Shown here: positions 38,159 to 59,681 of the stretch, piece by piece
Position numbering within the stretch: the stretch's first letter is position 1
How the letters are laid out: the number at the start of each line of letters is the position of its first letter
Origin: an uncultured Alphaproteobacteria bacterium
Lineage (GTDB): Bacteria; Pseudomonadota; Alphaproteobacteria; HIMB59
Direction of reading: 5' to 3'
Assembly (NCBI GenBank): GCA_902619375.1
Contig: CACNEB010000007.1
Coordinates: 2,118 to 66,117, forward strand
DNA length: 64,000 nucleotides
Notes under the pieces: model-generated
What the model was told of the DNA's origin: nothing
Database searches by the model: none
What the model saw: only the letters and a program-made list of their open reading frames with translations
Translations under genes and position numbers: made by a program

Positions 38159-38602
38159 GTGAAAAAAATTTTCAAATACACTTTTATTTTTATTATTGGT
38201 TTTAATTTAAAGCTATTTTCTGGTCCGTTTACAGATGAGTTTGCTAAGTGCATTGTGATGAAAACAACAACTCAAGAAAAAACTGATTTAGTAAGATGGA
38301 TTTATGTGACAATGTCATTTCACCCCCAACTTATGGATTTGTCTAATCTAACAGCTGATGATGTTGAAATGGTGAATATAAGAGTAGCTGACTACATGAC
38401 CAATGTCTTAGCTTATAAGTGCAATGAAGAGTTAAATATGGCTATAGATTACGAGGGTGAAGAGAGTGTTTATTATGCATTTGAACTCTTGGGAGAAATA
38501 GCAATGTCAGAGTTAATGGAAGATCAAGGGGTTAGTGCGGCAAGTGAACTATTTATTGATTATATAGATGTTTCAATTTTTGAGGAAATATTGAACTATT
38601 AA
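38159..38602 (+). CDS. Hypothetical exported acidic protein
   Basis: Signal-peptide-like N-terminus; TTGAAT-N18-TATCAT immediately upstream (possibly leaderless). Confidence 0.7.
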   Translation: MKKIFKYTFIFIIGFNLKLFSGPFTDEFAKCIVMKTTTQEKTDLVRWIYVTMSFHPQLMDLSNLTADDVEMVNIRVADYMTNVLAYKCNEELNMAIDYEGEESVYYAFELLGEIAMSELMEDQGVSAASELFIDYIDVSIFEEILNY

Positions 38603-38728
38603 ACTTATCAGTATTTATATAAATACGTTAATGCTGATAGCTATCTAATTAAACTTCCAATACCATATTACAAATCATAGGTAATACTTTATTTTGTTAA
38701 GATAATTGAAAAGTATAATAATTAATTA

Positions 38729-40801
38729 ATGAAAAATAAACCATCTAAAGAACAAGTAGATAATTTAATATACTTACTTAAACAAAAATCTTTTGATCTT
38801 TTAGTATCAAAAACAGCAGATTTAATAAATCAATTCCCTGACTCAATCTTATTACTAAATCTTAGTGGTATAGCAAATGCAAATTTAAAGAATTACAAAA
38901 AATCTATAGAATGTTTCGAGAAAATATTGTCCATAGATAACAACTCGACAGATGCATATTATAATTTAGGTAATTTAAAACAAAAAACTGGTGATATGGA
39001 GTCAGCTAAGTTTTTTTTTAATAAGACAATTGAATTAAATAAAAATTTTTATCAAGCATACAATAATTTAGGAATAATATACAAATTCGAAAAAAATTTT
39101 AAACAAGCAACATACTTTTTTAAATGCGCACATAATATAAATCAAAAACATTACCAATCATTAATAAATTTAGGTTTATTATCACAACTTCAAAATAATA
39201 ATTTAGAAGCTATTAATTATTTTGTTCAATCATATATGATAAAATCAAATAAATTTTCTTTAATCTATTTAGGAAATTCTCTTGCGCAATATAGATTTAT
39301 CGAACGTAGACCTGATCTTTATCAAATTATTTATGATTTAATAACTACAAATAATCTTGTTTCTCCAACTAATATTATTAAATCAGTAATTAGCCTTATT
39401 GTTAAAGAGGATGAAATTAACAAAATTCTTAACACAAATAAAAATTTAACTTCGGTCGATGATTTTAACCATATCATTAATGAAATTTCAAAGTATCCTT
39501 TTTTTATAGAAATTATAAAGTTATGTCCTTTAACAGATTTAAAATTTGAAAAACTATTTATAAAAATTAGATACTATTTATTATTAAATATTTCAAAGAT
39601 TAAACTTTCTGAGCAGACTCAAAAATTTCTTTATGCATTGGCATTGCAGTGTTTTGTCAACGAATTTGTCTACAATGAGACTGAAATAGAAACTGAAAAA
39701 ATAAAAGAATACGAGGAATTAATAAATAAAAATCTCTCTTTACAAATTCAACCAAATACCATTACATTGCTTTGTTTTTGTTTATATAGAAATTTAAATA
39801 ATTACAAGTGGTCTGCCAAATTAAAATTCTCAGACAATTTAATTTATTTAAAAAAAACATTAATCGTTGATGATATTATCGAAAAAGAAAATATATCAAA
39901 TATCGAAAAATTTAAAAAAGTTACTGACCACATATCTCTAAAAGTACAAAATCAGTATGAAGAAAATCCTTATCCTAGATGGATTAAAATGAGAACTGAG
40001 TTCGATGATTTATCAATCAAAGATTTAATAGAAAATAATGAATTAAAAATTATTAAATCCGATATTAGAGAGGTATTTGAGCCAGATATTTTGATTGCTG
40101 GGTGTGGTACTGGACAACATGCTATATACACAGCACTAAATTATAAAAATTCAAACGTTTTAGCACTAGATTTAAGTCTTTCAAGTCTAGCTTATGCTAA
40201 AAGAAAAGTTGATGAGTATGAAATCAAAAATATAAATTTTATTCATTCTGATCTCTCAGATGTTAAAAACTTTAATAAAAAATTTGACATAATTGAGAGC
40301 GTTGGTGTTTTGCATCATATGAACAATCCCTATGAAGGTATGAGATGTTTAGTGGATGTTTTAAAAGATTTTGGCCTAATTAACTTAGGCCTTTATAGTA
40401 AGTATGCCAGGAAACACATATCTAAAATAAGGCAAGATATACAATCAAAAAAAATCGTTCCATCAAACATTGAGATAAAAAAGTATAGAAACTATATTTT
40501 TAATTCTAATAATAATGAAAATATAATGATCAAAAATTCAAAGGATTTTTACACTACAAGTTCAGCTAGAGACTTATTATTTCACGTTCAGGAGCATCAA
40601 TTCGATTTAATAGAAATAAAAAATTATTTAAAAAAATTAAATTTATTTTTTTGTGGATTTGATAATTCAAATTTAAAAACAAAGTTTAAATCAATCTATA
40701 ATTTCGATGATATATACGATTTAGAAAAATGGGATGAATTTGAAAGGAAAAATCCAAATTCTTTTGATGGGATGTATCAGTTTTATTGCCAAAAGATATA
40801 A
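38729..40801 (+). CDS. TPR-repeat class I SAM methyltransferase
   Basis: TPR repeats (AYYNLG, AYNNLG); QYEENPYPRW; ILIAGCGTG; GVLHH. Confidence 0.88.
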   Translation: MKNKPSKEQVDNLIYLLKQKSFDLLVSKTADLINQFPDSILLLNLSGIANANLKNYKKSIECFEKILSIDNNSTDAYYNLGNLKQKTGDMESAKFFFNKTIELNKNFYQAYNNLGIIYKFEKNFKQATYFFKCAHNINQKHYQSLINLGLLSQLQNNNLEAINYFVQSYMIKSNKFSLIYLGNSLAQYRFIERRPDLYQIIYDLITTNNLVSPTNIIKSVISLIVKEDEINKILNTNKNLTSVDDFNHIINEISKYPFFIEIIKLCPLTDLKFEKLFIKIRYYLLLNISKIKLSEQTQKFLYALALQCFVNEFVYNETEIETEKIKEYEELINKNLSLQIQPNTITLLCFCLYRNLNNYKWSAKLKFSDNLIYLKKTLIVDDIIEKENISNIEKFKKVTDHISLKVQNQYEENPYPRWIKMRTEFDDLSIKDLIENNELKIIKSDIREVFEPDILIAGCGTGQHAIYTALNYKNSNVLALDLSLSSLAYAKRKVDEYEIKNINFIHSDLSDVKNFNKKFDIIESVGVLHHMNNPYEGMRCLVDVLKDFGLINLGLYSKYARKHISKIRQDIQSKKIVPSNIEIKKYRNYIFNSNNNENIMIKNSKDFYTTSSARDLLFHVQEHQFDLIEIKNYLKKLNLFFCGFDNSNLKTKFKSIYNFDDIYDLEKWDEFERKNPNSFDGMYQFYCQKI

Positions 40802-40836
40802 TCCTCTTATGTTTTTTATTTTGGAGACTGCAATAA

Positions 40837-40888
40837 TGGTGCCACTGAGAAGAATTGAACTTCCAACCCCACCCTTACCAAGGGTGTG
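40837..40888 (-). repeat. Direct-repeat copy of the tRNA-Thr 3' end (att-like)
   Basis: 49/52 identical to 41763-41814, same orientation. Confidence 0.93.
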
Positions 40889-40960
40889 AATTCTCCACAC
40901 TTCTCTACTTCCTTAGCTTTTTCAGCGATAATATACACCGAATTTCCCTTTAACAGAAAG

Positions 40961-40984
40961 TTTGTGTATCAATTTGTGTATCAA
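40961..40984. repeat. Tandem TTTGTGTATCAA x2 (arm-type site candidate); third copy TTTGTGTTTCAA at 41708-41719
   Basis: Read directly from sequence. Confidence 0.8.
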
Positions 40985-41006
40985 TTTTTTTTTGATATTT
41001 TTAACT

Positions 41007-41690
41007 ATGAAAAATTTATTAACTATTATTTTTATCATTATCCCATTTATCGTTTTAGGCAATAGCGATTTAGAAAAAATTAATAGCCTATATAATAAAG
41101 CTGTTTTAGATGAAGTCAGTTATATCAAGTCAATTAACGATCTAGGCATAAATACATTGAGTAATGAATTCTCAGATGTTTTAGAACTATTTAAAAAGGG
41201 AAGTATAGATTTTAATACATTTAATGATGCAATTTTGAATCTAAATAAATCACAATCAATTAAACAAAGTAATTCAAATTTAAGAACTTTCAAATTTGGT
41301 GAATGTAGGGGCAGCAGTTTGCTCTGTAACGAGTTATTCAAACTTTCTGAGGAAGACCTTATGACCGAAATATCCACTGATGATTTTGATAGTTGCGAGG
41401 AAGCCATAAGCTCATTCAATGAACAAGAGGATATCTTTGATGATGCTACTGAAAAACAAGGATGGAAAGAAATAAATAGAAAGCTTTTCATAAAAAATAA
41501 TAATTTTTCAGTAGTTATAAATTTCTTATATTTTATTCCTCAGTATGGACGCAATGTGGATGTGAAAATGTTTATTAAAGGTGATTTAGGAACAGAGGAA
41601 AATGCTTGTAAGGATTTCTCACTTTTTAACCTCGGATTAGATGTAATGGGTAGAAATATAGGTACTATTGAATTAGAAGAGGTTTTTTAA
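41007..41690 (+). CDS. Hypothetical exported protein (cassette cargo)
   Basis: ATG 41007 gives signal-peptide-like MKNLLTIIFIIIPFIVLG; the upstream track extension translates the tandem repeat. Confidence 0.7.
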   Translation: MKNLLTIIFIIIPFIVLGNSDLEKINSLYNKAVLDEVSYIKSINDLGINTLSNEFSDVLELFKKGSIDFNTFNDAILNLNKSQSIKQSNSNLRTFKFGECRGSSLLCNELFKLSEEDLMTEISTDDFDSCEEAISSFNEQEDIFDDATEKQGWKEINRKLFIKNNNFSVVINFLYFIPQYGRNVDVKMFIKGDLGTEENACKDFSLFNLGLDVMGRNIGTIELEEVF

Positions 41691-41762
41691 TTCTTTAATT
41701 CCAACAATTTGTGTTTCAATTGAAGCAAGTAAGAGTAGGTGGTTAAAATTAACCTTAGTATA

Positions 41763-41837
41763 TGGTGCCGCCGAGAAGAATTGAACTTCCGACCCCACCC
41801 TTACCAAGGGTGTGCTCTACCACTGAGCTACGGCGGC
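41763..41837 (-). tRNA. tRNA-Thr(GGT)
   Basis: GCCGCCGTAGCTCAGTGGTAGAGCACACCCTTGGTAAGGGTGGGGTCGGAAGTTCAATTCTTCTCGGCGGCACCA; cloverleaf, encoded CCA. Confidence 0.97.
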
Positions 41838-41857
41838 GTTTTTAAAATTATAGACTA

Positions 41858-42043
41858 TTAATACATATTAAAAAACATTAACAAAAGACAACCAGCTGTA
41901 AGGTATTTAGAGATTTCATAAATAAATTTCCATTTATTATTATTTTGACTTACGCGCCATGTAGCGAATGTAATTGCCAAAAAAACAAATGATACAAACC
42001 ACATTAAATTAGGGTTTTTTGTTAATTCAATAATAACTAACAT
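41858..42043 (-). CDS. Small 2-TM hypothetical protein
   Basis: ORF track; hydrophobic; tandem with neighbours. Confidence 0.55.
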   Translation of the reverse strand: MLVIIELTKNPNLMWFVSFVFLAITFATWRVSQNNNKWKFIYEISKYLTAGCLLLMFFNMY

Positions 42044-42045
42044 GA

Positions 42046-42234
42046 TTAATTCACAAGGTAAAACTTATCTACCAGATAGTTTATTAACAAGACTAATCCA
42101 ATCATAAATATCCAATATAGTTTTTTGTTGTTTCTAATAAAAGGTATCCCGATAGCACTGTATCTAAATAATTTATGAAGTCCCCAAATAACTAAGGGGA
42201 TCAAAAATAACCAAAAAATAATTTCCCAAATCAT
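42046..42234 (-). CDS. Small 2-TM hypothetical protein
   Basis: ORF track; hydrophobic. Confidence 0.55.
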   Translation of the reverse strand: MIWEIIFWLFLIPLVIWGLHKLFRYSAIGIPFIRNNKKLYWIFMIGLVLLINYLVDKFYLVN

Positions 42235-42247
42235 TTTCTAACTTTAA

Positions 42248-42859
42248 TTATTTCTTTTTTAATAAAACTATCCTAATTTTAATATCAAAACCAAAATCTT
42301 TATTTTTTGGAAGGTAATTTAAAGGTCTTGATATATAAATTGAGTCAAAATCAGTTAATTTTTCTAAAACATTATCAAATTTTAATTCTTTCCATAAATC
42401 TACTCTTTGTGTAAATTTAAAATAACCATTTTTTACAAGATAATAAGAAACCAGTTTAAAAAGTGACTGGTGATTTTTACAATATGTCATTGCATCAATA
42501 AGACTTACCACACTGTACTTATTTACTATTTTAATTTTATTCTCAAAACTTTTCTTATAAAGATATCTATATTTTCCATTTCTTTTAGAAATATCTAATA
42601 TATTCCTAGAAATATCTGATCCATCACAAATACAGTCAGGGTAAATTTGTAAAAATTTATCAACAAAAAGCCCTGTGCCACATGCTAAATCTTAAATAAA
42701 TTTTGGTTTTGTTTTGATATATTTCTTTAAAATTTTAATTGATTGCAATGGAGCTTTGTAGTTCCATTTATACAATGTCTCATCATATGAACTAGACCAG
42801 TTATCATAATATTTCTCTATATCTTTTTTGTTACCAATACCTTTAAGAAGAGATTTCAT
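42248..42859 (-). pseudogene. Class I SAM methyltransferase with in-frame TAA
   Basis: MKSLLKG...YYDNWSSSYDE..WNYKAP...KFI*DLACGTG; stop at 42692-42694; frame continues into track ORF 42248-42511. Confidence 0.85.
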
Positions 42860-42948
42860 TTAAATTTTAAAACTCACTAATTTATTACCATTTATCAATT
42901 AATCTTCATCTTATTGTAATTTTTGTAAAATGATGATATTTAAATTTT

Positions 42949-43029
42949 ATGGATAATAATAAACCAAAACCTGATTGTGGTTGTTCTTGCTCATGCTGTT
43001 GCACATGTGGCGACGGTTGTTGTCAATAA
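42949..43029 (+). CDS. 26-aa Cys-rich peptide, metallothionein-like (not in ORF track)
   Basis: MDNNKPKPDCGCSCSCCCTCGDGCCQ*; 9 Cys encoded by mixed TGT/TGC codons. Confidence 0.7.
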   Translation: MDNNKPKPDCGCSCSCCCTCGDGCCQ

Positions 43030-43181
43030 ATAATTTTAATAAGAACAATTATTCCTAAAATAATACCGAATATTACATCCACGTATTTTCCTTTTTTTCT
43101 GGCCATAAGATAAAAAGAAATTAAAGCTAGACTAATTACTATAATGCTCGATAAGTTTGTTACAAAAGAAGAGGGCTCCAT
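43023..43181 (-). CDS. 52-aa 2-TM protein (not in ORF track)
   Basis: MEPSSFVTNLSSIIVISLALISFYLMARKKGKYVDVIFGIILGIIVLIKIIY*; starts 3 nt after the Anbu stop. Confidence 0.6.
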   Translation of the reverse strand: MEPSSFVTNLSSIIVISLALISFYLMARKKGKYVDVIFGIILGIIVLIKIIY

Positions 43182-43184
43182 TTA

Positions 43185-43910
43185 TTATTCTTCCCATTTA
43201 AAACGATCGAAAGATTTAAAAATTTCAAATATTCCTTTTTCCCATTGTTTAGATATGTATTGATAATCGTCATCATTAATTTCAAGAGATTGCTGATAAA
43301 CTATTTTTGATAATTTATTTTTATAGACAACTAAGTCGATCGGCGGACCAACAGATAAATCTGCTTTCATTGTACTGTCCATACTTATCAACGCACATCT
43401 TGCTGCATCACCTAAATATGTGTCAGATTTAACAACTCTATCTAAAATTGGCTTACCATACTTAATTTCTCCTATAACAAGATAAGGTTTGAATTCACTT
43501 GATTTAATAAAGTTACCCTGTGGGTAAACCAAATATAATTCCGACTCTTGATCTTTTATATGTCCACCAACTATAAAAGTTGAACCTAATTCAATAGTCT
43601 CTTGATTAATACCATCTGGTGAGGAATGTTTAACATTTAATCTCCCAATGTATTTTGCTATTTCATTTAAATTAAATAAATTATTTAAATTATTCCCGTT
43701 TTTATCGTCTTCTAAATCTTTAGTAATCGAATTAAAGACTGCTTGAGATGTAGCTAAATTTCCTGAAGTTAAAATTATTATATTTCTATCAATGCCTTTA
43801 TGGACATACATTTTAGAATAAGAGTTAAAGTTATCTAGGCCTGCATTTGTTCTCCTGTCAGATGCAAAAACCATCCCTTCATTTACTTTAATTCCTACAC
43901 AGTAAGTCAC
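43185..43910 (-). CDS. Anbu proteasome-type Ntn protease
   Basis: N-terminal (M)TYCVG, SD.RTNAG.D, GNLATSQ, IGE.KYGKPILDR, LSVGPP.D. Confidence 0.92.
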   Translation of the reverse strand: MTYCVGIKVNEGMVFASDRRTNAGLDNFNSYSKMYVHKGIDRNIIILTSGNLATSQAVFNSITKDLEDDKNGNNLNNLFNLNEIAKYIGRLNVKHSSPDGINQETIELGSTFIVGGHIKDQESELYLVYPQGNFIKSSEFKPYLVIGEIKYGKPILDRVVKSDTYLGDAARCALISMDSTMKADLSVGPPIDLVVYKNKLSKIVYQQSLEINDDDYQYISKQWEKGIFEIFKSFDRFKWEE

Positions 43911-44015
43911 ATCTTAATTAAATAGCTAATTTTTTAAAAATACAAACGATTATTTACATACCTTCAATCTAAACTATGCATAACTATTAATAGGCATTTA
44001 TAGTATTTTTATACA

Positions 44016-45461
44016 GTGAGTATAAATTGGAAAAATTACAATTCAAAAAACAGCTATGATGAGTATTTAACCCCTGAAAAAAGTCTCAGAAAAGAAGCTA
44101 AAGTAATTTCTAAAATATTAAATAGTTACTCAGTCAAAGATTTAGAAAGAATTGAACAAAATTGTCAAAGCACAATAAGTTCTCGCGGCATCAATTTTAA
44201 AGTTTACTCAGCTGATAAAAAAGCTGCAGAGGAAAAAAAATGGCCATTGGATATAATTCCTAGGATTATATTGAAATCTCAATGGTTAAAGGTAAGAAAA
44301 GGATTAATACAAAGGTGTAAAGCTTTAAATCTTTTTATAAATGATGTTTATAATCAAAAAAAAATATTTAAAGACAACATTGTTCCAAAAGATTTAGTAT
44401 TTAAATCTCAAAATTATTTAAAACAATGTGAAGGATTTATGCCTAAAAGAAAAATTTGGTCTCATATTTCAGGAATAGATTTAATAAGAAATATTGATGG
44501 AAAATTTTTAGTGTTAGAAGATAATCTTCGCGTTCCTTCAGGTGTTTCATACATGCTTGAAAACAGAATGGTAATGGGAGAGGTATTTCCTGAATTATTT
44601 ACTCGTTATAGAGTTTCACCGATTAATCACTATTGCAATAGACTCTATCACTGTATGTTAGATGCAATACCTTATAAAAAAAATAACCCAACAATGGTTG
44701 TATTAACGCCAGGAGTTTATAACTCTGCATACTTTGAGCATTCATTTTTAGCACAACAAATGGGTATAGCTCTTGTTGAGGGAAAAGATCTTTATGTCGA
44801 AAATGATAAAGTTTATGTAAAGACAGTAAAAGGAGGTTTGAGAGTTGATTGTATATACAGAAGGATTGATGATACTTTTTTAGATCCCAAAACTTTTTTT
44901 AAAGGATCTTTGTTAGGTGTAGCGGGTTTATACAAATCTTACAGAAAAGGCAATGTTGGACTTTTAAATGCTCCTGGTAGTGGGGTAGCAGATGATAAAG
45001 TTATATACTCATATGTTCCTAAAATAATTAAGTATTATTTAGATGAAGAGCCTAAATTGGACCAAGTAGAGACATATTTATGTCATAATAAATCCGAGAG
45101 AGATCACGTAATTTCTAATATTTCAAAAATGATAGTAAAACCAGCTGATGGATCTGGTGGTTATGGAATTATAGTAGGGCCCAAATCCTCTAAATCTGAG
45201 AGAGAGGCATACATTAGAAAAATTTTACATAACCCAAGAAACTTTATTGCTCAACCTTTAGAAATATTATCAACTACACCAACTTTACAGGGGAATTTAA
45301 TTGAACCTCGACACCAAGATTTACGACCATTTATTCTTTCTGGAAAGGAGACATATGTAACTATGGGCGGTTTGACTAGAGTTGCTCTTAAAAAGGGAAG
45401 CACGATCGTAAATAGCTCACAAGGTGGAGGTTCAAAAGACACTATGATTGTAGAAGATTAA
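44016..45461 (+). CDS. Circularly permuted type 2 ATP-grasp protein
   Basis: LEDNLRVPSGVSYMLENR, NSAYFEHSFLA, IYRRIDD.FLDP, GGLTRVAL, VNSSQGGGSKDT. Confidence 0.93.
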   Translation: MSINWKNYNSKNSYDEYLTPEKSLRKEAKVISKILNSYSVKDLERIEQNCQSTISSRGINFKVYSADKKAAEEKKWPLDIIPRIILKSQWLKVRKGLIQRCKALNLFINDVYNQKKIFKDNIVPKDLVFKSQNYLKQCEGFMPKRKIWSHISGIDLIRNIDGKFLVLEDNLRVPSGVSYMLENRMVMGEVFPELFTRYRVSPINHYCNRLYHCMLDAIPYKKNNPTMVVLTPGVYNSAYFEHSFLAQQMGIALVEGKDLYVENDKVYVKTVKGGLRVDCIYRRIDDTFLDPKTFFKGSLLGVAGLYKSYRKGNVGLLNAPGSGVADDKVIYSYVPKIIKYYLDEEPKLDQVETYLCHNKSERDHVISNISKMIVKPADGSGGYGIIVGPKSSKSEREAYIRKILHNPRNFIAQPLEILSTTPTLQGNLIEPRHQDLRPFILSGKETYVTMGGLTRVALKKGSTIVNSSQGGGSKDTMIVED

Positions 45462-45465
45462 ATTT

Positions 45466-46902
45466 TTAAATCTTTTGCTTCACAACTATTGTCTGATTTA
45501 AATTTTCAACCTCTAATGTTTCCTCATCCCCATTAGTCCATTTAATTTTAATTTTAAACTCATTTTCATTATCTCTAATTCCATAGTGAGCAACTGGCTC
45601 CATTTGACATAAATAACCTGATCCTGCATCGATTGTTTTAGAATGAGTTCTTACATTTGTGTAAAGAGTTACTGTTGCTCCTCTTGCTGGTGCCCCATGG
45701 ATATTCAAAGGCCTTACTCTTAAAAAAGATCTTTGCTCATCATTATTATATTTAAATAGGGTCAATGGTTGAGCACCGGACTCACCATGAGATAAAAGAA
45801 GTTCTAGTACTCCATCATTATCAATATCTGCAACCGCTGCCCCTGTTCCAAGACCATTTGGCTCAAGAGCTTGATCTAGTTTTATTTCTTTAAAGACACC
45901 GTTTTCAATTATTTTATAAAGTCTATTTGGTTCACCTATGTTATTTAGAAACACTTCATCATAACCATCATTATCAAAATCTGCTGAGATTACTGTTCTA
46001 ATTTTTGTTGGTTCGTCAAAAGAAGAGTTAGCAATATTTTTAAATTTATCATTATCCAAAACATAGGCTCTGTTAAAACCTGTCCAATTACCGTTTAAAA
46101 TATCAAGTCTTCCTCGATAAAGGATGTCAGATAACGCTGTTCCTCTTCCATTTTGATAAATATCTTTGACATTCATCTCGCCAGCAACTTCTGAATACTT
46201 ACCATTTTGATTTAAATATAGAAAATTCGGACCTCTTTCATTAGCTGCAAACACATCTATTTGATCAGACAAGATGTGACCAGCAACTACAGCTCTACCT
46301 CCTGTAACTTTATCAAGCCCTAGACTTGCAGCTAGATCTACAACTCTATTATCAATAAACTCATAGAATCTTGTTGGGCCACCATAATTAGCAACATAAA
46401 TTCCGTAATTTCCATTACCCTCTCTATCGACACAAACTACTGATCTTCCTGCTGTTAAATTCAATTCACTTTTATTAATTTCTTTTTCGAATAAGTCCTC
46501 TATTACATCCTTGGAATTTATTAAAAGCCTGTCTGAATACATTTTTACCCCACTATAAGTATCTGTATTAAGAAAATAAATCTCCTCAAGACCATCTTTA
46601 TCTATGTCACATGCTGCAACTCCAATTGTAGATCTCTCTGGGTCAGAAAAAATATTATTAGTAATTTTATTTTCAAGTCTTTCTCCATTAAAACCTAAAG
46701 CTAAATTACTATATCTAAATCCAGTAACTATAAATTCATCATTTCCATCATTGTCAAAATCGCTTACAGCTACACCGTAACTTAGTCTAGAACTTTGATC
46801 GGGTAATAAATTACTGATATTTTTGAAATAACTTTTTTCTGCAAATACATTCATAGAATAAAAAAATAATAAAAATAAAAACGAAAATTTATAAAATTTC
46901 AT
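45466..46902 (-). CDS. CRTAC1-like FG-GAP / ASPIC-UnbV secreted protein
   Basis: DFDNDG, DIDKDG, DIDNDG repeats; C-terminal IDAGSGYLCQMEPVAHYG; start moved to ATG 46902. Confidence 0.85.
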   Translation of the reverse strand: MKFYKFSFLFLLFFYSMNVFAEKSYFKNISNLLPDQSSRLSYGVAVSDFDNDGNDEFIVTGFRYSNLALGFNGERLENKITNNIFSDPERSTIGVAACDIDKDGLEEIYFLNTDTYSGVKMYSDRLLINSKDVIEDLFEKEINKSELNLTAGRSVVCVDREGNGNYGIYVANYGGPTRFYEFIDNRVVDLAASLGLDKVTGGRAVVAGHILSDQIDVFAANERGPNFLYLNQNGKYSEVAGEMNVKDIYQNGRGTALSDILYRGRLDILNGNWTGFNRAYVLDNDKFKNIANSSFDEPTKIRTVISADFDNDGYDEVFLNNIGEPNRLYKIIENGVFKEIKLDQALEPNGLGTGAAVADIDNDGVLELLLSHGESGAQPLTLFKYNNDEQRSFLRVRPLNIHGAPARGATVTLYTNVRTHSKTIDAGSGYLCQMEPVAHYGIRDNENEFKIKIKWTNGDEETLEVENLNQTIVVKQKI

Positions 46903-46959
46903 ATATTTAATACTATTTTTAGGATGATCTAGATTTAGATATGATTTGTAAATTAACAA

Positions 46960-47694: not shown

Positions 47695-47709
47695 ATTTAA
47701 ATTATTATT

Positions 47710-48192: not shown

Positions 48193-48197
48193 ACTAA

Positions 48198-48383
48198 TTA
48201 ATCGATTAATAAATAATCAGCATAGACTATAGTATTACTACTTTTTAATCTATATTTTTTGACTAATTTTACAGCTTTATATTTTTTACGTAATTTTTTT
48301 AGTTCTAGTGATGCTTCTTTTCTATATTTTATGTTTTTCCACCATGATGAATTACCAATTTCTAAAGTAATTACTTTCTTCAT
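48198..48383 (-). CDS. Small basic hypothetical protein
   Basis: ORF track; tightly packed with neighbours. Confidence 0.55.
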   Translation of the reverse strand: MKKVITLEIGNSSWWKNIKYRKEASLELKKLRKKYKAVKLVKKYRLKSSNTIVYADYLLID

Positions 48384-48812: not shown

Positions 48813-48823
48813 ATCAATATTAA

Positions 48824-49237: not shown

Positions 49238-49240
49238 AAA

Positions 49241-49333: not shown

Positions 49334-49368
49334 AGTTTAATTATACAAATTTTGCTTTAAGTTGGAAG

Positions 49369-51948: not shown

Positions 51949-51954
51949 ATAATT

Positions 51955-51983
51955 TATTTGGTAATAATTTATGAAGAAACAAG
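51955..51983 (-). promoter_or_regulatory. Putative RpoH (sigma32) promoter of clpB
   Basis: Minus strand CTTG-N18-CCAAAT, close to the alphaproteobacterial CTTG-N18-CCTAT pattern. Confidence 0.5.
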
Positions 51984-52078
51984 ACCTAATAAAAAAAAAT
52001 TTTGAACAACAAAAAAAAGATAAATTAGCTCAAAAATTAAGAGAAAATCTAAAAAAAAGAAAAAAAATTAAGAAATAA
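51971..52078 (+). CDS. 35-aa basic protein upstream of murA (not in ORF track)
   Basis: MKKQDLIKKNFEQQKKDKLAQKLRENLKKRKKIKK*; I recall LA..LRENL.RRK from small ORFs preceding alphaproteobacterial murA. Confidence 0.6.
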   Translation: MKKQDLIKKNFEQQKKDKLAQKLRENLKKRKKIKK

Positions 52079-52081
52079 AAA

Positions 52082-53338
52082 ATGCAAACGGTAGTTATAA
52101 AAGGTCCTTCAACCTTGAAAGGGAAAATAAAAATCTCTGGTTCAAAAAATGCTTCTTTGCCTATTATTATTTCGACTCTGTTGGCAAAAGGTGAGTGTCT
52201 TATTCATAATGTACCTAACCTTAGAGATACAAGATTTTTAATCTCAATTTTAAAAGATTTAGGTTGTGATGTTGATTTTCAAAAAAACACTCTATTTGTT
52301 AGAAGTTCTGCTATTACAAAAAAATCAGCTGATTACGAATATGTTCGTCAAATGAGAGCATCTATTGTTATTTTAGGACCTGCGATTTCAAGATATAAAA
52401 AATTTAAAATAGCTCTTCCTGGTGGTTGCTCAATTGGCACAAGAGGAATTGATTTGCACTTAAATGCTCTAAAGTTAATGGGTGTAAAAATCTCAATAAA
52501 AAATGGTTATGTAATAGCTGAGAGAAAAAAAAATAATTTAATTTCAATTGACTATAAATTTCCAAAAATCAGTGTAGGTGCAACACAAAATATTTTAATG
52601 GCAGCTAGTCTTGCAAGTGGAAAAAGTACATTAAAAAATTGTGCCATCGAGCCTGAAGTCATAGATTTAATTAATTTTTTAAATAAATGTGGCGCACTTA
52701 TAAAAGTAAAAAATAGGACAATTACAGTTAGAGGAGTAGAAGAACTAAAACTTCAAGATTACAAAGTAATACCTGACAGGATAGAAGCTGGCTCATATAT
52801 TTTAGCAACTATGGCAACAAAAGGTAGACTCAAATTATATAACTTCAATCCAAAAGACTTAGCTCTTCCTTTGAAACTTTACAAAGGAATGGGTCTAAAA
52901 ATAAAAAAGCTATCTAATACCTCTTATGAAATTTATTGTAAAACACTTAAACCAATAAAAAAAATTTCTACAAAAGAATTTCCAGGATACCCTACAGATT
53001 TACAGGCTCAGCTAATAGCAACACAACTTAAGTCTGGTTTAAAGTCGAAAGTGGTCGAAAATATATTTGAAAATAGATTTATTCATATTCCAGAGCTGAG
53101 AAGATTTGGGGCAAATTTATCAATCAAAGGAAATACAGTAACAATTGATAAAACATCTAATTTACTGGGCGCAGAGGTCATGGCGACAGATATAAGGGCT
53201 AGTTTTTCCCTTATAATCGCAGCAATGATGTCTAAGGGAAAAACTGTAATAAATAGAATTTATCATCTTGATAGAGGATATGAAGATTTTGATTTAAAAT
53301 TAAAAAAATGTGGCGTAAACATTAGTAGAAAAAAATGA
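52082..53338 (+). CDS. murA: UDP-N-acetylglucosamine enolpyruvyl transferase
   Basis: GSKNA, MRAS, LPGGC.IG.R, PDRIEAG, HLDRGY. Confidence 0.96.
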   Translation: MQTVVIKGPSTLKGKIKISGSKNASLPIIISTLLAKGECLIHNVPNLRDTRFLISILKDLGCDVDFQKNTLFVRSSAITKKSADYEYVRQMRASIVILGPAISRYKKFKIALPGGCSIGTRGIDLHLNALKLMGVKISIKNGYVIAERKKNNLISIDYKFPKISVGATQNILMAASLASGKSTLKNCAIEPEVIDLINFLNKCGALIKVKNRTITVRGVEELKLQDYKVIPDRIEAGSYILATMATKGRLKLYNFNPKDLALPLKLYKGMGLKIKKLSNTSYEIYCKTLKPIKKISTKEFPGYPTDLQAQLIATQLKSGLKSKVVENIFENRFIHIPELRRFGANLSIKGNTVTIDKTSNLLGAEVMATDIRASFSLIIAAMMSKGKTVINRIYHLDRGYEDFDLKLKKCGVNISRKK

Positions 53339-53970
53339 ATAATCAAAATTTAATAATTGCCTGCCCTAAAGGTAGGCTTGAAGAAAAAGTTGTAAAATTT
53401 TTATCTGAAAGAGGTTTAAGAATAGAAGAGGCTTTCTTCAATGATAGTGTTAGAAAATTAACTTTTGATACAAATCTTAACGAGATAAAAGTAATTAAGT
53501 TAAAACCATCTGATATTCGATCGTATATTATGCTAGGTGCAGCTGATATTGGATTTGTTGGATATGACGAGATTCTCGAAAATAGCTCAGAAAATATTGT
53601 TCTTTTAAAAAAGACTAAAATAGGAAAGTGTAGAATATCTATAGCTTCAAATAAAAAAAAAATAAATTTTTCGGAAAAGAAAATTTTTAAAGTTGCAACA
53701 AAATTTAAAAATATCGCTGAGAATTATTTTAAAGATTTAAATATACAGACTGAAACAATAAAATTAAATGGTTCTATCGAGCTTGCAGTAAAATATGGAA
53801 TAGCTGATTTTATCTTAGATTTAGTTCAATCAGGCAAGACATTAAAAGACAATCAGCTTTACGAAAATGTAGTAATAAACAATGACATCTCAACTGTAAT
53901 AATTAGTAGCTATTTTGCGTACGATTTAAAAAAAAAATTTATTAAAAAAATTTTTATGCAAGGTTTATAG
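53335..53970 (+). CDS. hisG: ATP phosphoribosyltransferase, short form
   Basis: PKGRL, VATKF, LNGSIELA, DLVQSG.TL. Confidence 0.93.
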   Translation: MNNQNLIIACPKGRLEEKVVKFLSERGLRIEEAFFNDSVRKLTFDTNLNEIKVIKLKPSDIRSYIMLGAADIGFVGYDEILENSSENIVLLKKTKIGKCRISIASNKKKINFSEKKIFKVATKFKNIAENYFKDLNIQTETIKLNGSIELAVKYGIADFILDLVQSGKTLKDNQLYENVVINNDISTVIISSYFAYDLKKKFIKKIFMQGL

Positions 53971-55241
53971 TGAAATTTGTAAATAAAAAATGGATTTTTG
54001 ATAATATCAACTCATCTAAAAATACAAATTCCAAAATAAGTTTAGCTGTAAAAAAAATTATACATGACGTAAAAAAAAATAAGGATGTAGCTTTATTAAA
54101 GTATGTAAAAAAGTTTGAGAACAAAAAAGCAAATTTAAAAAGTATAATAATTTCAAAAAAAACTTTAAAGGATGCTTATAATTCTCTTTCAAATGAAAAT
54201 AAAAAATCTCTTAATTTAGCTTACAAAAGAATTTTTTATTATCACTCAAAACAAAAAAAAACATCTTATTCTTTCAAAGATCAACTTGACTCGAAGTTTT
54301 ATATTGAATGGAAACCAATTGAAAATGTTGGTTTATACATTCCTGGTGGGTTAGCTTCATATCCATCAACTGTTTTAATGACAGCCATACCTGCAAAAAT
54401 AGCCAAAGTTCCAAATATTATGATTTGTGTTCCTTCTCAAAATGGTCAAACATCAAAACTAACTCTTGCAGCTGCGTATTTATGCGGTGTAAATGTTGTT
54501 TACAACGTTGGTGGTGCTCAAGCAATAGCAGCTCTCGCTTTTGGCACAAATATCATAAAAAAGGCGGATAAAGTATTTGGCCCAGGAAACCAATACGTAG
54601 CTGAAGCAAAAAAACAATTATTTGGAGTTATAGGAATAGATTTACCAGCTGGCCCGTCTGAGGTCCTAGTAATAGCAAATAATAATTCTAATCCTACTTG
54701 GATAGCCTACGATGTTCTCGCCCAAGGCGAACATGACCCAAATGCAAAAACGTATGTTTTATCTAAATCCAAAAATATTTTAATTAAAGTTAAAAATGAA
54801 ATAAAAAGAATTACGGAAGATACAAAATTTAAAAATGTTGATCAATCTATAAAAAATAATTGCAATTTAATTTTAGCTAAAAGTCAAAAAGAAATATATG
54901 AAATTTCAAATTTTATTGCTCCAGAGCATCTTCATATTCATGAAAAATTTACCAAAAATATATTAAAAAATATAAAAAATGCTGGATCTGTATTTTTAGG
55001 TGAAAAATCTCCTGTTGCTTTGGGAGATTATACAATTGGAACTAATCACGTCTTACCAACAGATCAAACTGCAAAATTTTCATCTGGCTTGGGTGTTGAA
55101 GATTACACTAAAAAAACAGTTTTTATTGACCCTAGAAAAAAAACTCTTAAGAAAATAGCAAATCACACAATTAATCTTGCGAGACAAGAGGGTTTGGAGG
55201 CACACGCTTTATCAGTTGAAATTAGAAAGATCAAACAATAA
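53970..55241 (+). CDS. hisD: Histidinol dehydrogenase
   Basis: GGAQAIAALA.G, GPGN.YV, AGPSE, PEHL. Confidence 0.95.
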   Translation: MKFVNKKWIFDNINSSKNTNSKISLAVKKIIHDVKKNKDVALLKYVKKFENKKANLKSIIISKKTLKDAYNSLSNENKKSLNLAYKRIFYYHSKQKKTSYSFKDQLDSKFYIEWKPIENVGLYIPGGLASYPSTVLMTAIPAKIAKVPNIMICVPSQNGQTSKLTLAAAYLCGVNVVYNVGGAQAIAALAFGTNIIKKADKVFGPGNQYVAEAKKQLFGVIGIDLPAGPSEVLVIANNNSNPTWIAYDVLAQGEHDPNAKTYVLSKSKNILIKVKNEIKRITEDTKFKNVDQSIKNNCNLILAKSQKEIYEISNFIAPEHLHIHEKFTKNILKNIKNAGSVFLGEKSPVALGDYTIGTNHVLPTDQTAKFSSGLGVEDYTKKTVFIDPRKKTLKKIANHTINLARQEGLEAHALSVEIRKIKQ

Positions 55242-55252
55242 AATAAAATTAT

Positions 55253-55474
55253 ATGTCTAAAGAAGATGCAATAGAATTTCAAGGTGTAGTTTCAGAGCTA
55301 CTTCCAAATGCTATGTTTAAAGTTAAGTTAGATAATGACCATGAAGTCATTGCCCATACATCTGGAAAAATGAGGAAAAATAGAATAAGAGTACTCGCAG
55401 GAGACCGAGTAACAGTTGAGATGACACCATATGATTTAACTAAGGGCAGAATAACATTTAGGTCGAAGAACTAA
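55253..55474 (+). CDS. infA: Translation initiation factor IF-1
   Basis: [22 protein letters not shown]. Confidence 0.97.
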
Positions 55475-55502
55475 TGAATAATTTTTTAAAAGGAGCAATG
55501 CC

Positions 55503-56630
55503 ATGTCTACAAAACTTATTGTTACAAACTATAAAAATTTTAAGTGCGGAGTCAAACTCAATGAAGGGGAATTGGTTAATATTCGCTTTCAACCCAACGA
55601 AGATGTTCAAATTGGTGATATCTATAAAGTAAAAATTACAGAAATTTTACCAAATGATAGTGGAGCATTTGTTTCATATGGGAACGGAGATCAAAGAGGT
55701 TTCTTTAAAAGAATAAATTATCCTAATGGCGAAAAGGCACATGAAGGACAATCTTTATTACTTCAAGTAAGAAGCATAGGCTCTAAAGATAAAGTTCATC
55801 TTTTTACAAATAATGTTATTTTAACTGGTAAATTTATAAATTTATTACCATATGGTGATGAAATTATTCTTAGTAGAAGAACTAGAAAAAATTTAGACAC
55901 AAATCAACAAGATAAAATTATGGATGCTCTAAGTGAGTCTGAAGTCGGATTGATAGCTAGGCATAATCTTATTCCTGAAAATATTGAAATTGCTCAATCT
56001 GAGTTGAATGATTTAAATAATCAATGGAAAGAAATAGAATTAAATGCAAAAGAATTAAGCGATGAGGGTCTTGTTTTCCAAAATACATATTTTGATCAAA
56101 ATTTTGTTTGTGATTACTCTGATAAAAATACTGATCAAATCATCTTTAGTGATAATGATCGTTTCGAAAGAGTAAAAAACTGGGATGAAAAACTGGACTC
56201 TACTTTTGCAAATCTATGTGAAGAGATGTCCAATGAACAAATTGAAGAGGTATTTAATTTAGGTGAAAAGATAGATTATTTAATCGGTCACAATTACGAT
56301 TTACCTAGTGGAGGTAATATTATGATTGGTAAAACAGATGCTCTTACAGCAATTGATGTTAATACGGGATCAGCAAAAAGATTTGATACAAATAGAGAAG
56401 CTATTCAATTAATCTCAAGGCTTATAAAATTAAAAAATATTTCTGGAAAAGTGGTTATTGACCCTGTAGCCAGCGACCAAAATACACTCAGAAAACTTGT
56501 TGGTATGTTAAAAAATGAATTTAGAGATGATTTAAGTATTACAAATGTTTATGGCTACACAAGGGGAGGGCTTTTAGAGTTGAGCAGGTCAAGAAACGAT
56601 CGTTCAATTGATGAATTAAACCTTCAATAG
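55503..56630 (+). CDS. RNase E/G-family ribonuclease (short)
   Basis: S1 region GDIY..AFV; LTAIDVNTG; VVID; GLLELSR.R. Confidence 0.85.
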   Translation: MSTKLIVTNYKNFKCGVKLNEGELVNIRFQPNEDVQIGDIYKVKITEILPNDSGAFVSYGNGDQRGFFKRINYPNGEKAHEGQSLLLQVRSIGSKDKVHLFTNNVILTGKFINLLPYGDEIILSRRTRKNLDTNQQDKIMDALSESEVGLIARHNLIPENIEIAQSELNDLNNQWKEIELNAKELSDEGLVFQNTYFDQNFVCDYSDKNTDQIIFSDNDRFERVKNWDEKLDSTFANLCEEMSNEQIEEVFNLGEKIDYLIGHNYDLPSGGNIMIGKTDALTAIDVNTGSAKRFDTNREAIQLISRLIKLKNISGKVVIDPVASDQNTLRKLVGMLKNEFRDDLSITNVYGYTRGGLLELSRSRNDRSIDELNLQ

Positions 56631-56640
56631 TCTTTCAAAG

Positions 56641-56716
<76 letters not shown>

Positions 56717-56792
56717 ATAGCGAATTATTACTATTATAAATAAATTCTTTTTACTAGTAAAAATTGATTATTATATAAGAGAGGAGTTTTAT

Positions 56793-57164
56793 ATGACAAA
56801 TTTTGAAAAAGTGAAGTTATTTATGAAAACTTATGGTCAAGAAGTAAAAGATAAATCTGGACTCAGTGACGCTAAGACTAACAAGTTAAGAATTGACCTT
56901 ATCAAAGAGGAATTAGAAGAATTAACTGAAGCAATGAAGGATGAAAATTTACTTGAGGTAGCAGATGCATTAACCGACATACTTTATGTCACTTATGGAG
57001 CCGGTCATGCTTTTGGTATTGATTTAGATAAGTGTTTTGAGGAAGTTCAAAACTCTAATATGAGCAAATTAGGTGAGGATGGAAAACCCATATATAATGA
57101 GGCTGGAAAAGTAATGAAAGGCCCGAACTATTTTAAACCAGACCTTTCAAAATATTTAAATTAA
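56793..57164 (+). CDS. MazG-like (PRA-PH family) NTP pyrophosphohydrolase
   Basis: LIKEELEEL, EVADALTDILYV.YG, EVQ.SNMSK, GKVMKG. Confidence 0.88.
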   Translation: MTNFEKVKLFMKTYGQEVKDKSGLSDAKTNKLRIDLIKEELEELTEAMKDENLLEVADALTDILYVTYGAGHAFGIDLDKCFEEVQNSNMSKLGEDGKPIYNEAGKVMKGPNYFKPDLSKYLN

Positions 57165-57485
57165 TTACTTTGGCATATTTGTGGCACCAGTTTCTAAAGA
57201 AAAGATTTTACCATCTTTGAAAGTGAATACTGCCATAACTGCCTGTGTGTTACCATCTGAAAAAGTTACAAATGAGTGCTCAATCCCAATTTCATCATTT
57301 TCATAAATAATTCGGACCTTGTCTCTATTAATATCATCGCTCATTGCCCACTGTATAACATCTTGTTTAGTTAAAACTTTTCCAGAAGCATGCATTGTGA
57401 ATTTATAATCATCATGAAGCACCTCATTCATACCAGCTTCATCTTTATTCATAAAGACCTCATCATATTTTTTTAATATTGACAT
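57165..57485 (-). CDS. NTF2/SnoaL-like protein
   Basis: LHDDY.F, IYEND, FKDGKI...ETGAT. Confidence 0.75.
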   Translation of the reverse strand: MSILKKYDEVFMNKDEAGMNEVLHDDYKFTMHASGKVLTKQDVIQWAMSDDINRDKVRIIYENDEIGIEHSFVTFSDGNTQAVMAVFTFKDGKIFSLETGATNMPK

Positions 57486-57498
57486 TTTTAATCCTTTT

Positions 57499-57801
57499 TT
57501 ATTCGTCTAATGAGACTTGTGTTAATTCGAACAATTCAATGCTTTGTATACATTCATCATAAATTGGCTTCATAACAGGGTTAGTTCCTTTAACGATACC
57601 CATCATTTCCTCTTCATTATGAACATGAACTTTAAACATGATACCGCTTTTATCAGGTAAAATTCCAGGAACTGTTTTTTCTACATGTGCTGCAGCTTTC
57701 CTCATTTCCATCCCCTCTTCAGATTGAAAAAAAGCCATAAATTTTTCAAATTTACCTTCACCCTCTTTTAATCTACCAATAGCTAACATCATTTTTTCCA
57801 T
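57499..57801 (-). CDS. Met-rich hypothetical protein
   Basis: Strong AAGGAGG RBS; ORF track. Confidence 0.7.
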   Translation of the reverse strand: MEKMMLAIGRLKEGEGKFEKFMAFFQSEEGMEMRKAAAHVEKTVPGILPDKSGIMFKVHVHNEEEMMGIVKGTNPVMKPIYDECIQSIELFELTQVSLDE

Positions 57802-57938
57802 AAAAAATTCCTCCTTAATTATTGTCTATTATGATTTAAAATATTTTTAATACAACACTATGAAAAAAAAACATATTAATCTCTTATAAAAGTTAATAGG
57901 TTATCATCTAATAATTTGATTAAAATCGTAATAGAAAT

Positions 57939-58130
57939 ATGAAAACTATCTTTAAAATTGGTTCCAAAAGTCATACACTGAAATATCAAAGAAAAATGCC
58001 AGAGGGTGAAGTAAAAAAAATGAAATCTTTTGTTACATCTAAAGGCATAAAGTTGGAAAAAACAGCTAAGTTTAAGATAATTGATATCAGTGATCAGAAA
58101 GACTCTAGAACATTCAAAATTAATCTATAA
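57939..58130 (+). CDS. Small basic hypothetical protein
   Basis: ORF track. Confidence 0.6.
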   Translation: MKTIFKIGSKSHTLKYQRKMPEGEVKKMKSFVTSKGIKLEKTAKFKIIDISDQKDSRTFKINL

Positions 58131-58238
58131 CAGATCATTTTATTCATGATAGAGTTGTTCTGAAGATAGAAATTGTTTAGTCTTATCAGTGCAATTAATA
58201 TATTGACCATAATTAATTATTTTTCTAATTTGAGCTAA

Positions 58239-58613
58239 ATGGAGTTATCAATAATTTTTATTATTATAATTTTAATATTTTTCTCACCTTTAATTTTAGG
58301 ATTAATTTTTATGGGTGCCCAAAAGAAAATTAACCTTAGACATACAAATTCTAGTTTAAATAAACCAGGGTTTGTTGGTTATTGTTGGACTTATTTCTTC
58401 TTCAGTTTTTTTGTTCCTATTTTTCGTGGAGAAATTTTAATTGGAGTGCTCCATTTGATCTTTTCAGTAGTAACATTTGGTCTTTTTCAGTTAGTTATTC
58501 CTTTTCTTTATAACAAACAATTTACTAGTCGCATGTTGACAAGTGGTTGGGAATTAAGTGACACTGAAGAGAATATGCAAGCTGCAAGACTCAAGTTAGG
58601 CATAGGAAATTAA
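58239..58613 (+). CDS. DUF2628/HrgC-like membrane protein
   Basis: VGY.WT.FFF.FFVP.FRG, FLYNK.....L..GW. Confidence 0.65.
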   Translation: MELSIIFIIIILIFFSPLILGLIFMGAQKKINLRHTNSSLNKPGFVGYCWTYFFFSFFVPIFRGEILIGVLHLIFSVVTFGLFQLVIPFLYNKQFTSRMLTSGWELSDTEENMQAARLKLGIGN

Positions 58614-58656
58614 AAGGGGGCGTTCTGTTTCCTAACACATCGTCCCTAAGTCGCAC
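58611..58656 (-). repeat. Diverged direct-repeat copy of the tmRNA coding-piece 3' end (att-like)
   Basis: GGGGCGTTCTGTT exact at 58617-58629 and 59421-59433; similarity continues (CGTCCCTAAGTCGCAC vs CGCCCCAAAGCCGCGC). Confidence 0.85.
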
Positions 58657-58675
58657 TATATAATGATTTTATAAT

Positions 58676-58698
58676 AGTGTCTGCTAAAAGTGTCTGCT
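58676..58698. repeat. Tandem AGTGTCTGCT x2 (left arm-type site candidate)
   Basis: Copies at 58676-58685 and 58689-58698. Confidence 0.85.
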
Positions 58699-58782
58699 CT
58701 GATTTTTAGTTTTTTACGAATTTGCGACTTCTGTTTTTAATAAAGTATACAAATAGTTCTAAATAAATGTTATTATTAATAT

Positions 58783-59298
58783 GTGATTAAAATTATTTTT
58801 TCATTCTTACTTGTATTTTCATTTAACTCTTTTGCTTTAGATATTAGTTCCCCAGCATTTAATGATGGTGATAATATTCCAAAAAAATATGGATGTAAGT
58901 ATAATGGAGGTAATAATATATCTATCCCATTAGAGTTTTCAGATATTCCAGATGATGCAAAATCTCTTGCACTAATTATTGATGACCCTGATGCAATGAG
59001 TGTTGCTGGTAAAATATGGGTGCATTGGATTTTAGTAGATATACCAACAAATACAAAAGAACTTAAAGAGGTCAAAGATGGAAAATTAGGTATTGGAAAA
59101 ACCGGAAGAAATAGTAATGGTAGTAAAAATTATGGTGGACCTTGCCCACCCAACGGAGTTCATGTTTATAATATAAAAGTTTATGCCTTAAACATTGAAA
59201 TAAACAAAAGTTTAGGCGAAATGACACAAAAAAAATTCGAAAAAAAATATAAGAATGAAATTATTAGTTCATCTATGATTTCAGGAAAATATAAATAA
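58783..59298 (+). CDS. YbhB/YbcL (PEBP/RKIP-like) exported protein
   Basis: DDPDA, WVHW, YGGPCPP..H.Y...YAL; signal peptide. Confidence 0.92.
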   Translation: MIKIIFSFLLVFSFNSFALDISSPAFNDGDNIPKKYGCKYNGGNNISIPLEFSDIPDDAKSLALIIDDPDAMSVAGKIWVHWILVDIPTNTKELKEVKDGKLGIGKTGRNSNGSKNYGGPCPPNGVHVYNIKVYALNIEINKSLGEMTQKKFEKKYKNEIISSSMISGKYK

Positions 59299-59352
59299 TC
59301 TTTTCTTACTAAATTCCTTCTCTTTGATTCATCGCCTAGAATGTAACTTCAA

Positions 59353-59373
59353 AGTGTCTGCTAAGTGTCTGCT
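59353..59373. repeat. Tandem AGTGTCTGCT x2 (right arm-type site candidate)
   Basis: Copies at 59353-59362 and 59364-59373. Confidence 0.85.
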
Positions 59374-59420
59374 CTTTAAAAATAAAAAAGTAAGAAGAAA
59401 TAAAGGTTATTAAAATAAAA

Positions 59421-59681
59421 GGGGCGTTCTGTTGCCCGGCCGCCCCAAAGCCGCGCTTACCTAATTAGATTAAGCAGCGAGTGCTAATTCATTATCGTTA
59501 GCAATTATTTTAAGTTTCTATGTCGAAGAAACGCTTACAACGAGCAAAAACTATATCCTTCAGAGCACGTCAAACCTATATCACCCCCATAAAAATTTTT
59601 ATGGTGGAGGTGTCGGGTACCGCCCCCGAGTCCGATACACCTATTACATATAGCGTTTATTGCTATAGTTGATAAACAACG
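59421..59681 (-). ncRNA. ssrA: Permuted two-piece tmRNA
   Basis: Acceptor piece ends CACCTCCACCA (59602); coding piece starts GGGGGTG (59588) giving the G3.U pair; tag ANDNELALAA* at 59502-59470; ends GGCAACAGAACGCCCC; 5' end approximate. Confidence 0.95.

Follow-up and report, generated by a model that had tools for sequence, protein, structure and literature searches.

Integrase-less gene units with matched arm repeats at tRNA-Thr and tmRNA genes of HIMB59-like marine bacteria

How does a single gene come to lie between an intact stable-RNA gene and a displaced copy of that gene's end, framed by short repeats and with no integrase beside it? The 64,000-nucleotide stretch analysed here (the window; GenBank assembly GCA_902619375.1, contig CACNEB010000007.1) raises this question at two places, a tRNA-Thr(GGT) gene and the gene for transfer-messenger RNA (tmRNA). 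The source assembly measures 1.1 Mb, is 79% complete and has about 30% G+C; a gene neighbourhood matching genomes of the same order and a permuted tmRNA gene of the alpha_tmRNA type suggest a HIMB59-like marine alphaproteobacterium. A preliminary description took both loci for minimal non-autonomous elements moved in trans by phage or island integrases. Comparing the sequences with those of relatives, we consider it somewhat probable that the units are internally deleted tyrosine-integrase elements that keep their arms, are remobilised in trans and are remodelled by recombination between shared arms.

Two att-bounded units in the window

The intact tRNA-Thr(GGT) gene occupies 41763–41837 on the minus strand. 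A displaced 3' fragment of it, running through the anticodon stem-loop, forms the distal attachment (att) copy (40836–40888, minus strand, 53 bp); it is 94% identical to 41762–41814 over 53 bp, with a period of 926 bp. Between the two lie, on the plus strand, a left arm of two tandem TTTGTGTATCAA (40961–40984), putative arm-type integrase binding sites to judge by their position, a cargo gene of 227 amino acids (aa; 41007–41690), and one copy of the right arm motif, TTTGTGTTTCAA (41708–41719), 43 bp from the tRNA end. In the window TTTGTGTWTCAA is found only at 40961, 40973 and 41708 (expected 0.04; three in none of 100 shuffles). The cargo protein has a signal-peptide-like N-terminus and 13 homologues of 56–94% identity; it belongs to no known family, with no match in Pfam, PHROG or Atlas. 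Two loci with distant homologues (28–31%; L437, L438) have no att copies; in genome G024 the homologue lies beside tRNA-Thr(TGT), in G015 it lies 5' of tRNA-Thr(GGT).

At the second site the intact gene is a permuted, two-piece tmRNA gene (59418–59719, minus strand; ARAGORN tmRNA*, RF01849, RF04321). The distal att copy is the displaced 3' end of its coding piece (58613–58632, minus strand), 90% identical to 59417–59436 over 20 bp, with a period of 804 bp. The left arm block (58633–58755, plus strand) contains tandem AGTGTCTGCT at 58676–58698 and a conserved stretch. A promoter-like TTGCGA-N18-TATACA at 58722–58751 within this block can be called a putative promoter only, because the promoter scan made no call there; promoter and terminator scans did no better than chance. 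The cargo gene (58783–59298, plus strand) encodes a 171-aa protein of the PEBP family (PF01161, Pfam E 9e-33), again with a signal-peptide-like N-terminus, and is followed by a right arm of two tandem AGTGTCTGCT (59353–59373, plus strand), 47 bp from the att core. The window holds AGTGTCTGCT at 58676, 58689, 59353 and 59364 (expected 0.02; four in none of 100 shuffles).

Both enclosed cargo genes are intact, their N-termini having been judged signal-peptide-like by eye. The RNA-end copies, the periods of 926 and 804 bp and the motif repeats of the preliminary description are all present, the repeats so far above shuffled expectation that a chance origin was rejected. All six genes that it named, three per site, are on the plus strand and face the RNA 3' ends. 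Its layout of a tandem motif, a single gene and the same motif again holds at both loci; the motif is tandem at either end of the tmRNA unit, and in the Thr unit tandem at the left end and single at the right.

In the Rfam match the tmRNA core (59421–59433) falls where the model stops, which is the 3' terminus of the coding piece. A tmRNA 3' end is indeed copied, as had been proposed, but it is the coding-piece end of a permuted gene and not the CCA end. The displaced copy folds no better than shuffled sequences (z 0.04), and the junctions consist of RNA-gene fragments. For alphaproteobacteria it is unusual that a permuted tmRNA gene should have its att site at the non-tRNA end; in cyanobacteria, Williams is said to have described integration at this end in 2003.

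Empty alleles, other cargo and arrays

Exact empty alleles exist for both units. In genome G062 the same upstream gene is fused straight to the intact tRNA-Thr, and in G010 the 124-aa gene that precedes the PEBP unit is fused straight to the tmRNA end; the displaced copy is absent from both. Other contents stand behind the same flanks: at tRNA-Thr, G001 has an element of 4.8 kb that encodes an integrase and a T7-like SSB, and at tmRNA, G022 has three different genes behind the same flank and left arm. The window's tmRNA left block, moreover, is 71–94% identical to the left ends of 21 other units, mostly with unrelated cargo, and in the longest matches the homology stops just short of the cargo. 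The empty sites and the exchange of cargo anticipated by the preliminary description are thus both borne out.

The Thr comparison drew on 38 of 41 loci, three being left out for tRNA mismatches or orientation. In these loci 29 units run from att to att; 16 lie 3' and 13 lie 5' of the tRNA gene, and among them there is one intact integrase and one fragment. The 7-nt anticodon loop is where the shortest 3'-side copies stop and where most 5'-side copies start. Judged from the tRNA call and these copies, the crossover common to both kinds of insertion maps to this loop (41801–41807 in the window); anticodon-centred crossover is described for tyrosine integrases in the Islander work (PMC4383910). 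The 5'-side insertions, up to three of them stacked, are found in L038, L040, L043, L047, L050–L052 and L055, and one polysaccharide-lyase gene occurs in both 3'-side and 5'-side units at 94–95% identity.

For the tmRNA site, a scan with an arm and core pattern returned at least 122 metagenome loci, of which 108 were retained as low in G+C, and 87 loci in genomes, of which 33 were low in G+C and 7 were removed as duplicates; many of the genome loci are titled Pelagibacteraceae. The census combines these scanned loci with 20 genus loci and the window, and most of it was therefore picked by motif. A set independent of the motif joins to the window 50 relatives out of the 55 in the genus that gave a tmRNA match; some of the contigs stop early. 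The census holds at least 148 units, at least 134 of them distinct after dereplication, with a median of 853 bp among the matches listed. Of the 134 distinct units listed, 12 contain no gene, 69 one, 29 two, 17 three and 7 more. The largest single loci carry 8 or 9 units (L249, L259), and arrays occur both in the window's order and in Pelagibacteraceae, so the integron-like stacking that had been envisaged is found in relatives. No intact tyrosine integrase was detected in the 134 units with our own hidden Markov model or with Pfam, the latter applied to 111 cargo representatives, from among 149 protein clusters, that reach 100 aa; one unit carries a resolvase and one an integrase stump. The motif-independent set yielded 21 units in 17 of 51 loci, 10 of them single-gene and none with an integrase.

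Orientation toward the RNA gene is seen in 41 of the 69 listed tmRNA units with a single gene and, counted by open reading frame (ORF), in 157 of 217. By a crude rule, 46 of the 69 single-gene units encode a hydrophobic N-terminus, compared with 46 of 185 control ORFs. Across units the cargo includes restriction-modification systems, polysaccharide lyases and many small exported proteins. Pairs of units in opposite order were not seen among the few shared units. Neighbouring units in L098, L161 and L162 carry paralogous genes of 33–61% identity, in one case three consecutive Adhesin_E-like genes. A 5.3-kb unit at the tmRNA core (L102:6056-11338) combines a resolvase, a weak Rep_1 match and an unclassified 420-aa gene; the last was considered as an integrase and not counted (weak match, E 0.03; no Pfam or PHROG family). 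Elsewhere in the window's own genome, att-bounded segments lie at tRNA-Gly(GCC) (G000:C9:4676-5714, about 0.96 kb, with arms resembling the stacked units of G077) and at tRNA-Pro(GGG) (G000:C6:46242-48730, about 2.4 kb).

In the window itself the stacking is modest. Three stacked cassettes per site had been suggested; a clear att copy bounds only one gene at each, and at tmRNA a second gene probably belongs to an older cassette. This is the 124-aa membrane protein gene (58239–58613, plus strand; phrog_4915, of unknown function in PHROG), which is missing in alleles G004, G021 and G025. It is preceded by a weak match to an eroded att core (about 58151–58162, minus strand) whose offset from the 63-aa gene equals that of the core in empty alleles and which is better kept in G010. 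The other three genes have no att copy. The 63-aa gene was rejected as a cassette, being present in 15 of the 17 loci that extend to it, and the 147-aa gene as a recent cassette, since it occurs in 21 of 40 Thr loci and is truncated by deletion in G021 and G025. A TPR and methyltransferase gene at 38729–40801 varies among relatives and has no att copy to its left.

Arm motifs, candidate helpers and possible movement

Tandem repeats stand at 67 left and 58 right ends of 119 listed units, against 3 mid-unit controls. A unit's own left and right arms have a 9-mer in common in 48 of the 119 (9.0 in shuffles; maximum 17 in 500), and in the motif-independent set a 9-mer is common across the unit in 9 of 21 (1.4; maximum 6 in 2000). 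In the family of the window's tmRNA unit, 49 of 54 listed units have 47 bp between the right motif and the core, although the pattern allowed 35–60 bp; the left motif starts 59–62 bp past the core in 35 of 39, and the motif subtype is concordant across the unit in 27 of 37 (12.4 in shuffles). With their spacing kept and their sides matching, the arms look maintained, and the repeats are predicted, by analogy with lambda-type systems, to bind the N-terminal arm domain of an integrase. In integrase-bearing elements, the integrase start sits immediately inside such repeats. The earlier idea that each site has its own recognition code has to be abandoned: at least 10 unrelated arm motifs occur at one tmRNA core and one arm family is common to two host groups, and the motifs therefore mark element families, not sites. 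The Thr arm pattern matched 7 of 187 genomes of the order, 6 of them at tRNA-Thr, including the window's own genome, and 8 of 401 Pelagibacteraceae genomes, where none of the matches listed has a tRNA-Thr arm.

A single host recombinase, XerC/D or a domesticated integrase, might serve all units, as in a chromosomal integron. Units do far outnumber integrase elements, Xer-like genes are present in nearly all genomes, and in the microcin H47 island (PMC3191183) the host is described as supplying the recombination. So many unrelated arm motifs sharing one core are hard to reconcile with one enzyme, however; no third recombinase is common to the genus, and no integrase gene is fixed beside either site. 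Tandem direct repeats 47 bp from the core are also unlike dif sites. We regard a host recombinase as very improbable.

Candidate helpers were sought with a profile built from six local integrases, which spans one integrase clade. Within the order it matched 29 of 187 genomes, and among the Pelagibacteraceae sampled 32 of 401. Of the 60 integrase loci that it gave, the tmRNA coding-piece end accounts for three (G363, G540, G141) and tRNA-Thr(GGT) only for G001 (L044, G001:C1). The G363 element (L369, G363:C1) is 14 kb long, with an integrase and a primase-like gene; that of G141 has a frameshifted integrase. Going by these matches, integrase-bearing elements are present at both sites but rare. 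Restriction-modification elements without an integrase in G075 and G083 have almost the same right arm as G001, so that a candidate helper with the same core and arm motif is seen for this sister Thr family. In the tmRNA integrase elements L359, L360 and L336 the arm-to-core distance is about 56–57 bp in two, one helical turn beyond the 47 bp of the window's family. The 6.1-kb integrase elements of L067 and L073 lie between two complete tRNA-Gly genes. A 3.3-kb tRNA-Met(CAT) element (L082, G000:C2:59042-62424) holds the only non-Xer integrase of the window's genome; its near-complete tRNA copy has one anticodon base changed and is called tRNA-Lys(CTT).

Phages, the other helper named in the preliminary description, found no backing. 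In viral contigs, attP pattern scans gave nothing or one chance-looking match within a coding region, and none of 15 core matches had an RNA gene or arm pairs; integrase scans returned only relatives of 25–32% identity, and annotated phages only tRNA genes. The helpers seen are small integrative elements, not phages.

Integrase-less elements of G033 and G075 retain, inside their arms, the integrase start followed by 16 and 36 codons, respectively. Such 5' stumps beside intact arms imply that deletion yields integrase-less elements; the window's own two units carry no stump. At tmRNA there are 13 cargo-less units of 120–147 bp, and one of 234 bp at Thr (L093, L102, L104, L106, L121, L139, L143, L151, L160, L194, L111, L211; L029). 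Composed of core, left arm, one tandem motif and right arm, they are likely deletions between direct repeats. The preliminary argument that the units are not deletion remnants was accordingly too strong.

Do the deleted units still move? Five different left neighbours precede the PEBP unit, its gene 90–97% identical, and they meet it at the core (the unit is also present in G033, G087, L231, L155 and L103). An 800-bp unit with another motif recurs at 93–96% identity in G141, L211 and G057, each time behind another neighbour. One junction of 54, that of L231, shows nested arms of the kind that entry of a whole integrase-less circle into a resident unit at a shared arm would produce. Near-identical units behind different neighbours point, at the level of sequence, to repeated integration. 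Matches by tblastn at unit ends were disregarded as artefacts, the stop-to-stop queries having included translated tRNA. Read depth was far lower on the Thr unit than on its conserved flank; it does not give a share of cells and was set aside.

Such movement could also be in cis, an adjacent integrase element excising together with the units as a composite and leaving them in the new host. This is described for cis-mobilisable elements (CIMEs; PMC5704250) and, as its authors present it, proposed for tycheposon islands (10.1101/2020.12.28.424599), and integrase elements do lie within arrays of small units, at tmRNA in G141 and in the tRNA-Gly arrays L075 and L376. For movement in cis, though, the distal arm alone would suffice, yet both arms match. 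In G141, moreover, the integrase-less 800-bp unit, whose arms are unrelated to those of the integrase element, lies nearer the RNA gene, and has therefore arrived later than that element. Movement in cis alone seems to us improbable.

Several observations weigh against remobilisation in trans. Arms often fail to match: 71 of the 119 listed units have no common 9-mer and 10 of 37 are discordant in subtype, and the shuffle tests overstate significance because the genomes are related and the large set was chosen by motif. At none of the 60 profile loci does an integrase stand beside the exact motifs of the window; the three tmRNA integrase elements carry different ones, about 56–57 bp from the core, and the G001 right arm is homologous, not identical, to the window's Thr right arm. 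Integrase-bearing elements thus appeared at both sites, but not with the motifs of the window. Its own assembly (79% complete, as noted) has only two Xer-like genes and the tRNA-Met integrase. The Thr unit is complete in a single context (G000, and G009 at 99%). The circular junctions that had been predicted were not seen: no circular joint of the Thr unit was present in contigs of 4 runs, which are weak for detecting circles, and no terminal repeats in 71 metagenome loci, which cannot show that circles are absent. Loss of a neighbour at the core can mimic independent entry. The window shares its left flank and left arm with G022, and homologous swapping could therefore have placed the PEBP gene. 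Arms and cargo have recombined, all four left/right arm combinations being present among the window, G033, G022 and L231, and there are PEBP copies that have lost one arm or both (G072, G029). As read from these sequences, the arm-less copies and the cargo-less units show that decay is ongoing.

Much of this would suit immobile, CIME-like remnants that entered within a larger element, were trimmed to a useful gene and now spread by homologous recombination only. The integrase stumps, the frameshifted integrase of G141, the cargo-less and arm-less copies, the lack of circles and the four arm combinations all agree with such an origin, and PEBP identity, at 97%, is barely above the 92–96% of the flanks. 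On the other hand, many units keep both arms at fixed spacing around one intact gene, motif variants co-change on both sides (G033 versus G087; the 27 of 37 above), an integrase stump is found in only 1 of 134 listed tmRNA units, and the same 800-bp unit stands beside neighbours that share nothing but the core. We therefore hold immobile remnants to be unlikely, while taking them more seriously than movement in cis.

Under the remobilisation that we favour, a small integrating element would lose its integrase and replication genes by deletion and keep its arms. The matching integrase of a rare helper element could then excise and reinsert the packet, the unit leaving as a circle, integrating at the RNA gene and displacing older units outward. 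Vesicles or capsids might carry it from cell to cell. Recombination between shared arm blocks would swap cargo, fuse neighbours and leave the cargo-less units of 120–147 bp.

Known systems and what the units may mean

The closest known systems are CIMEs and additive tRNA islands, both already in print. CIMEs, as described in PMC5704250, likewise have no integrase or transfer genes, retain attL and attR and stack at RNA genes; CIMEs originate by decay of autonomous elements. The window's units keep attL and attR with neither integration nor transfer genes. The units here differ in being mostly 0.4–2.2 kb with 1–3 genes and in far outnumbering autonomous elements; their arm repeats match and keep a fixed spacing, and one standard arm block recurs with unrelated cargo. 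Additive islands with small, mostly integrase-less cassettes and tRNA-end repeats are described in SAR11 (PMC11796062), where they are linked to tRNAs and in one case to tmRNA, in Actinomarinales (PMC7771536) and in Methylopumilus (PMC10872708). In the accessible text of these papers the repeat is described; the arm motifs, spacing, families and helpers are features of the present analysis. Our search, mainly of the open literature, found no report in which integrase-less single-gene units of these bacteria are framed by conserved arm motifs, although the figure supplements of PMC11796062 may show such repeats. The ssrA islands of Dehalococcoides also grow by stacked accretion, but, according to PMC3146451, with a serine recombinase acting at the T-loop.

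Tycheposons (10.1101/2020.12.28.424599) resemble the arrays in their tyrosine integrases at tRNA-Thr(GGT) and tmRNA, their outward-pushing tandem insertion and their rarity as transient elements. As that source presents them, they encode their own integrase, and integrase-less island material is explained as captured flank, not as att-complete units. The window's units have neither an integrase nor a replication module, the latter frequent in tycheposons; the helper elements G001 and G363 have such genes and resemble the tycheposons and cryptic integrative elements of Prochlorococcus. The islands collected by Islander (PMC4383910) likewise show an intact tRNA gene, a displaced fragment, an anticodon crossover, and 3' and rarer 5' fragments. 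In the window the RNA genes are intact, the displaced fragments have the same orientation and exact empty sites exist, but the units contain cargo genes only; Islander excludes them because, by its published rules, an integrase and at least 2 kb are required. Standard island finders with such integrase and 2-kb filters miss these units.

Integrons too are arrays of single-gene cassettes added at one site; they rely on a resident intI and on attC hairpins. Here the att site is an RNA gene and every unit has arm-type repeats, and no integrase lies beside either site in the window or is fixed there in relatives. A tentative and rather doubtful extension would be a distributed integron: a population-wide library of integrase-free cassettes, from below a kilobase to 2 kb, on a chassis of arms and promoter, spanning Pelagibacteraceae and the HIMB59-like order, in which passing helpers would redock cassettes by arm specificity.

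SAR11-type bacteria have huge flexible genomes of single genes and hardly any recognisable mobile elements, as set out in PMC11796062, and the units offer a concrete route by which such genes could come and go. Their cargo traits are tied to phage defence and nutrient use. This route is directly testable, because the att cores, the arm motifs and possible helper integrases have all been mapped.

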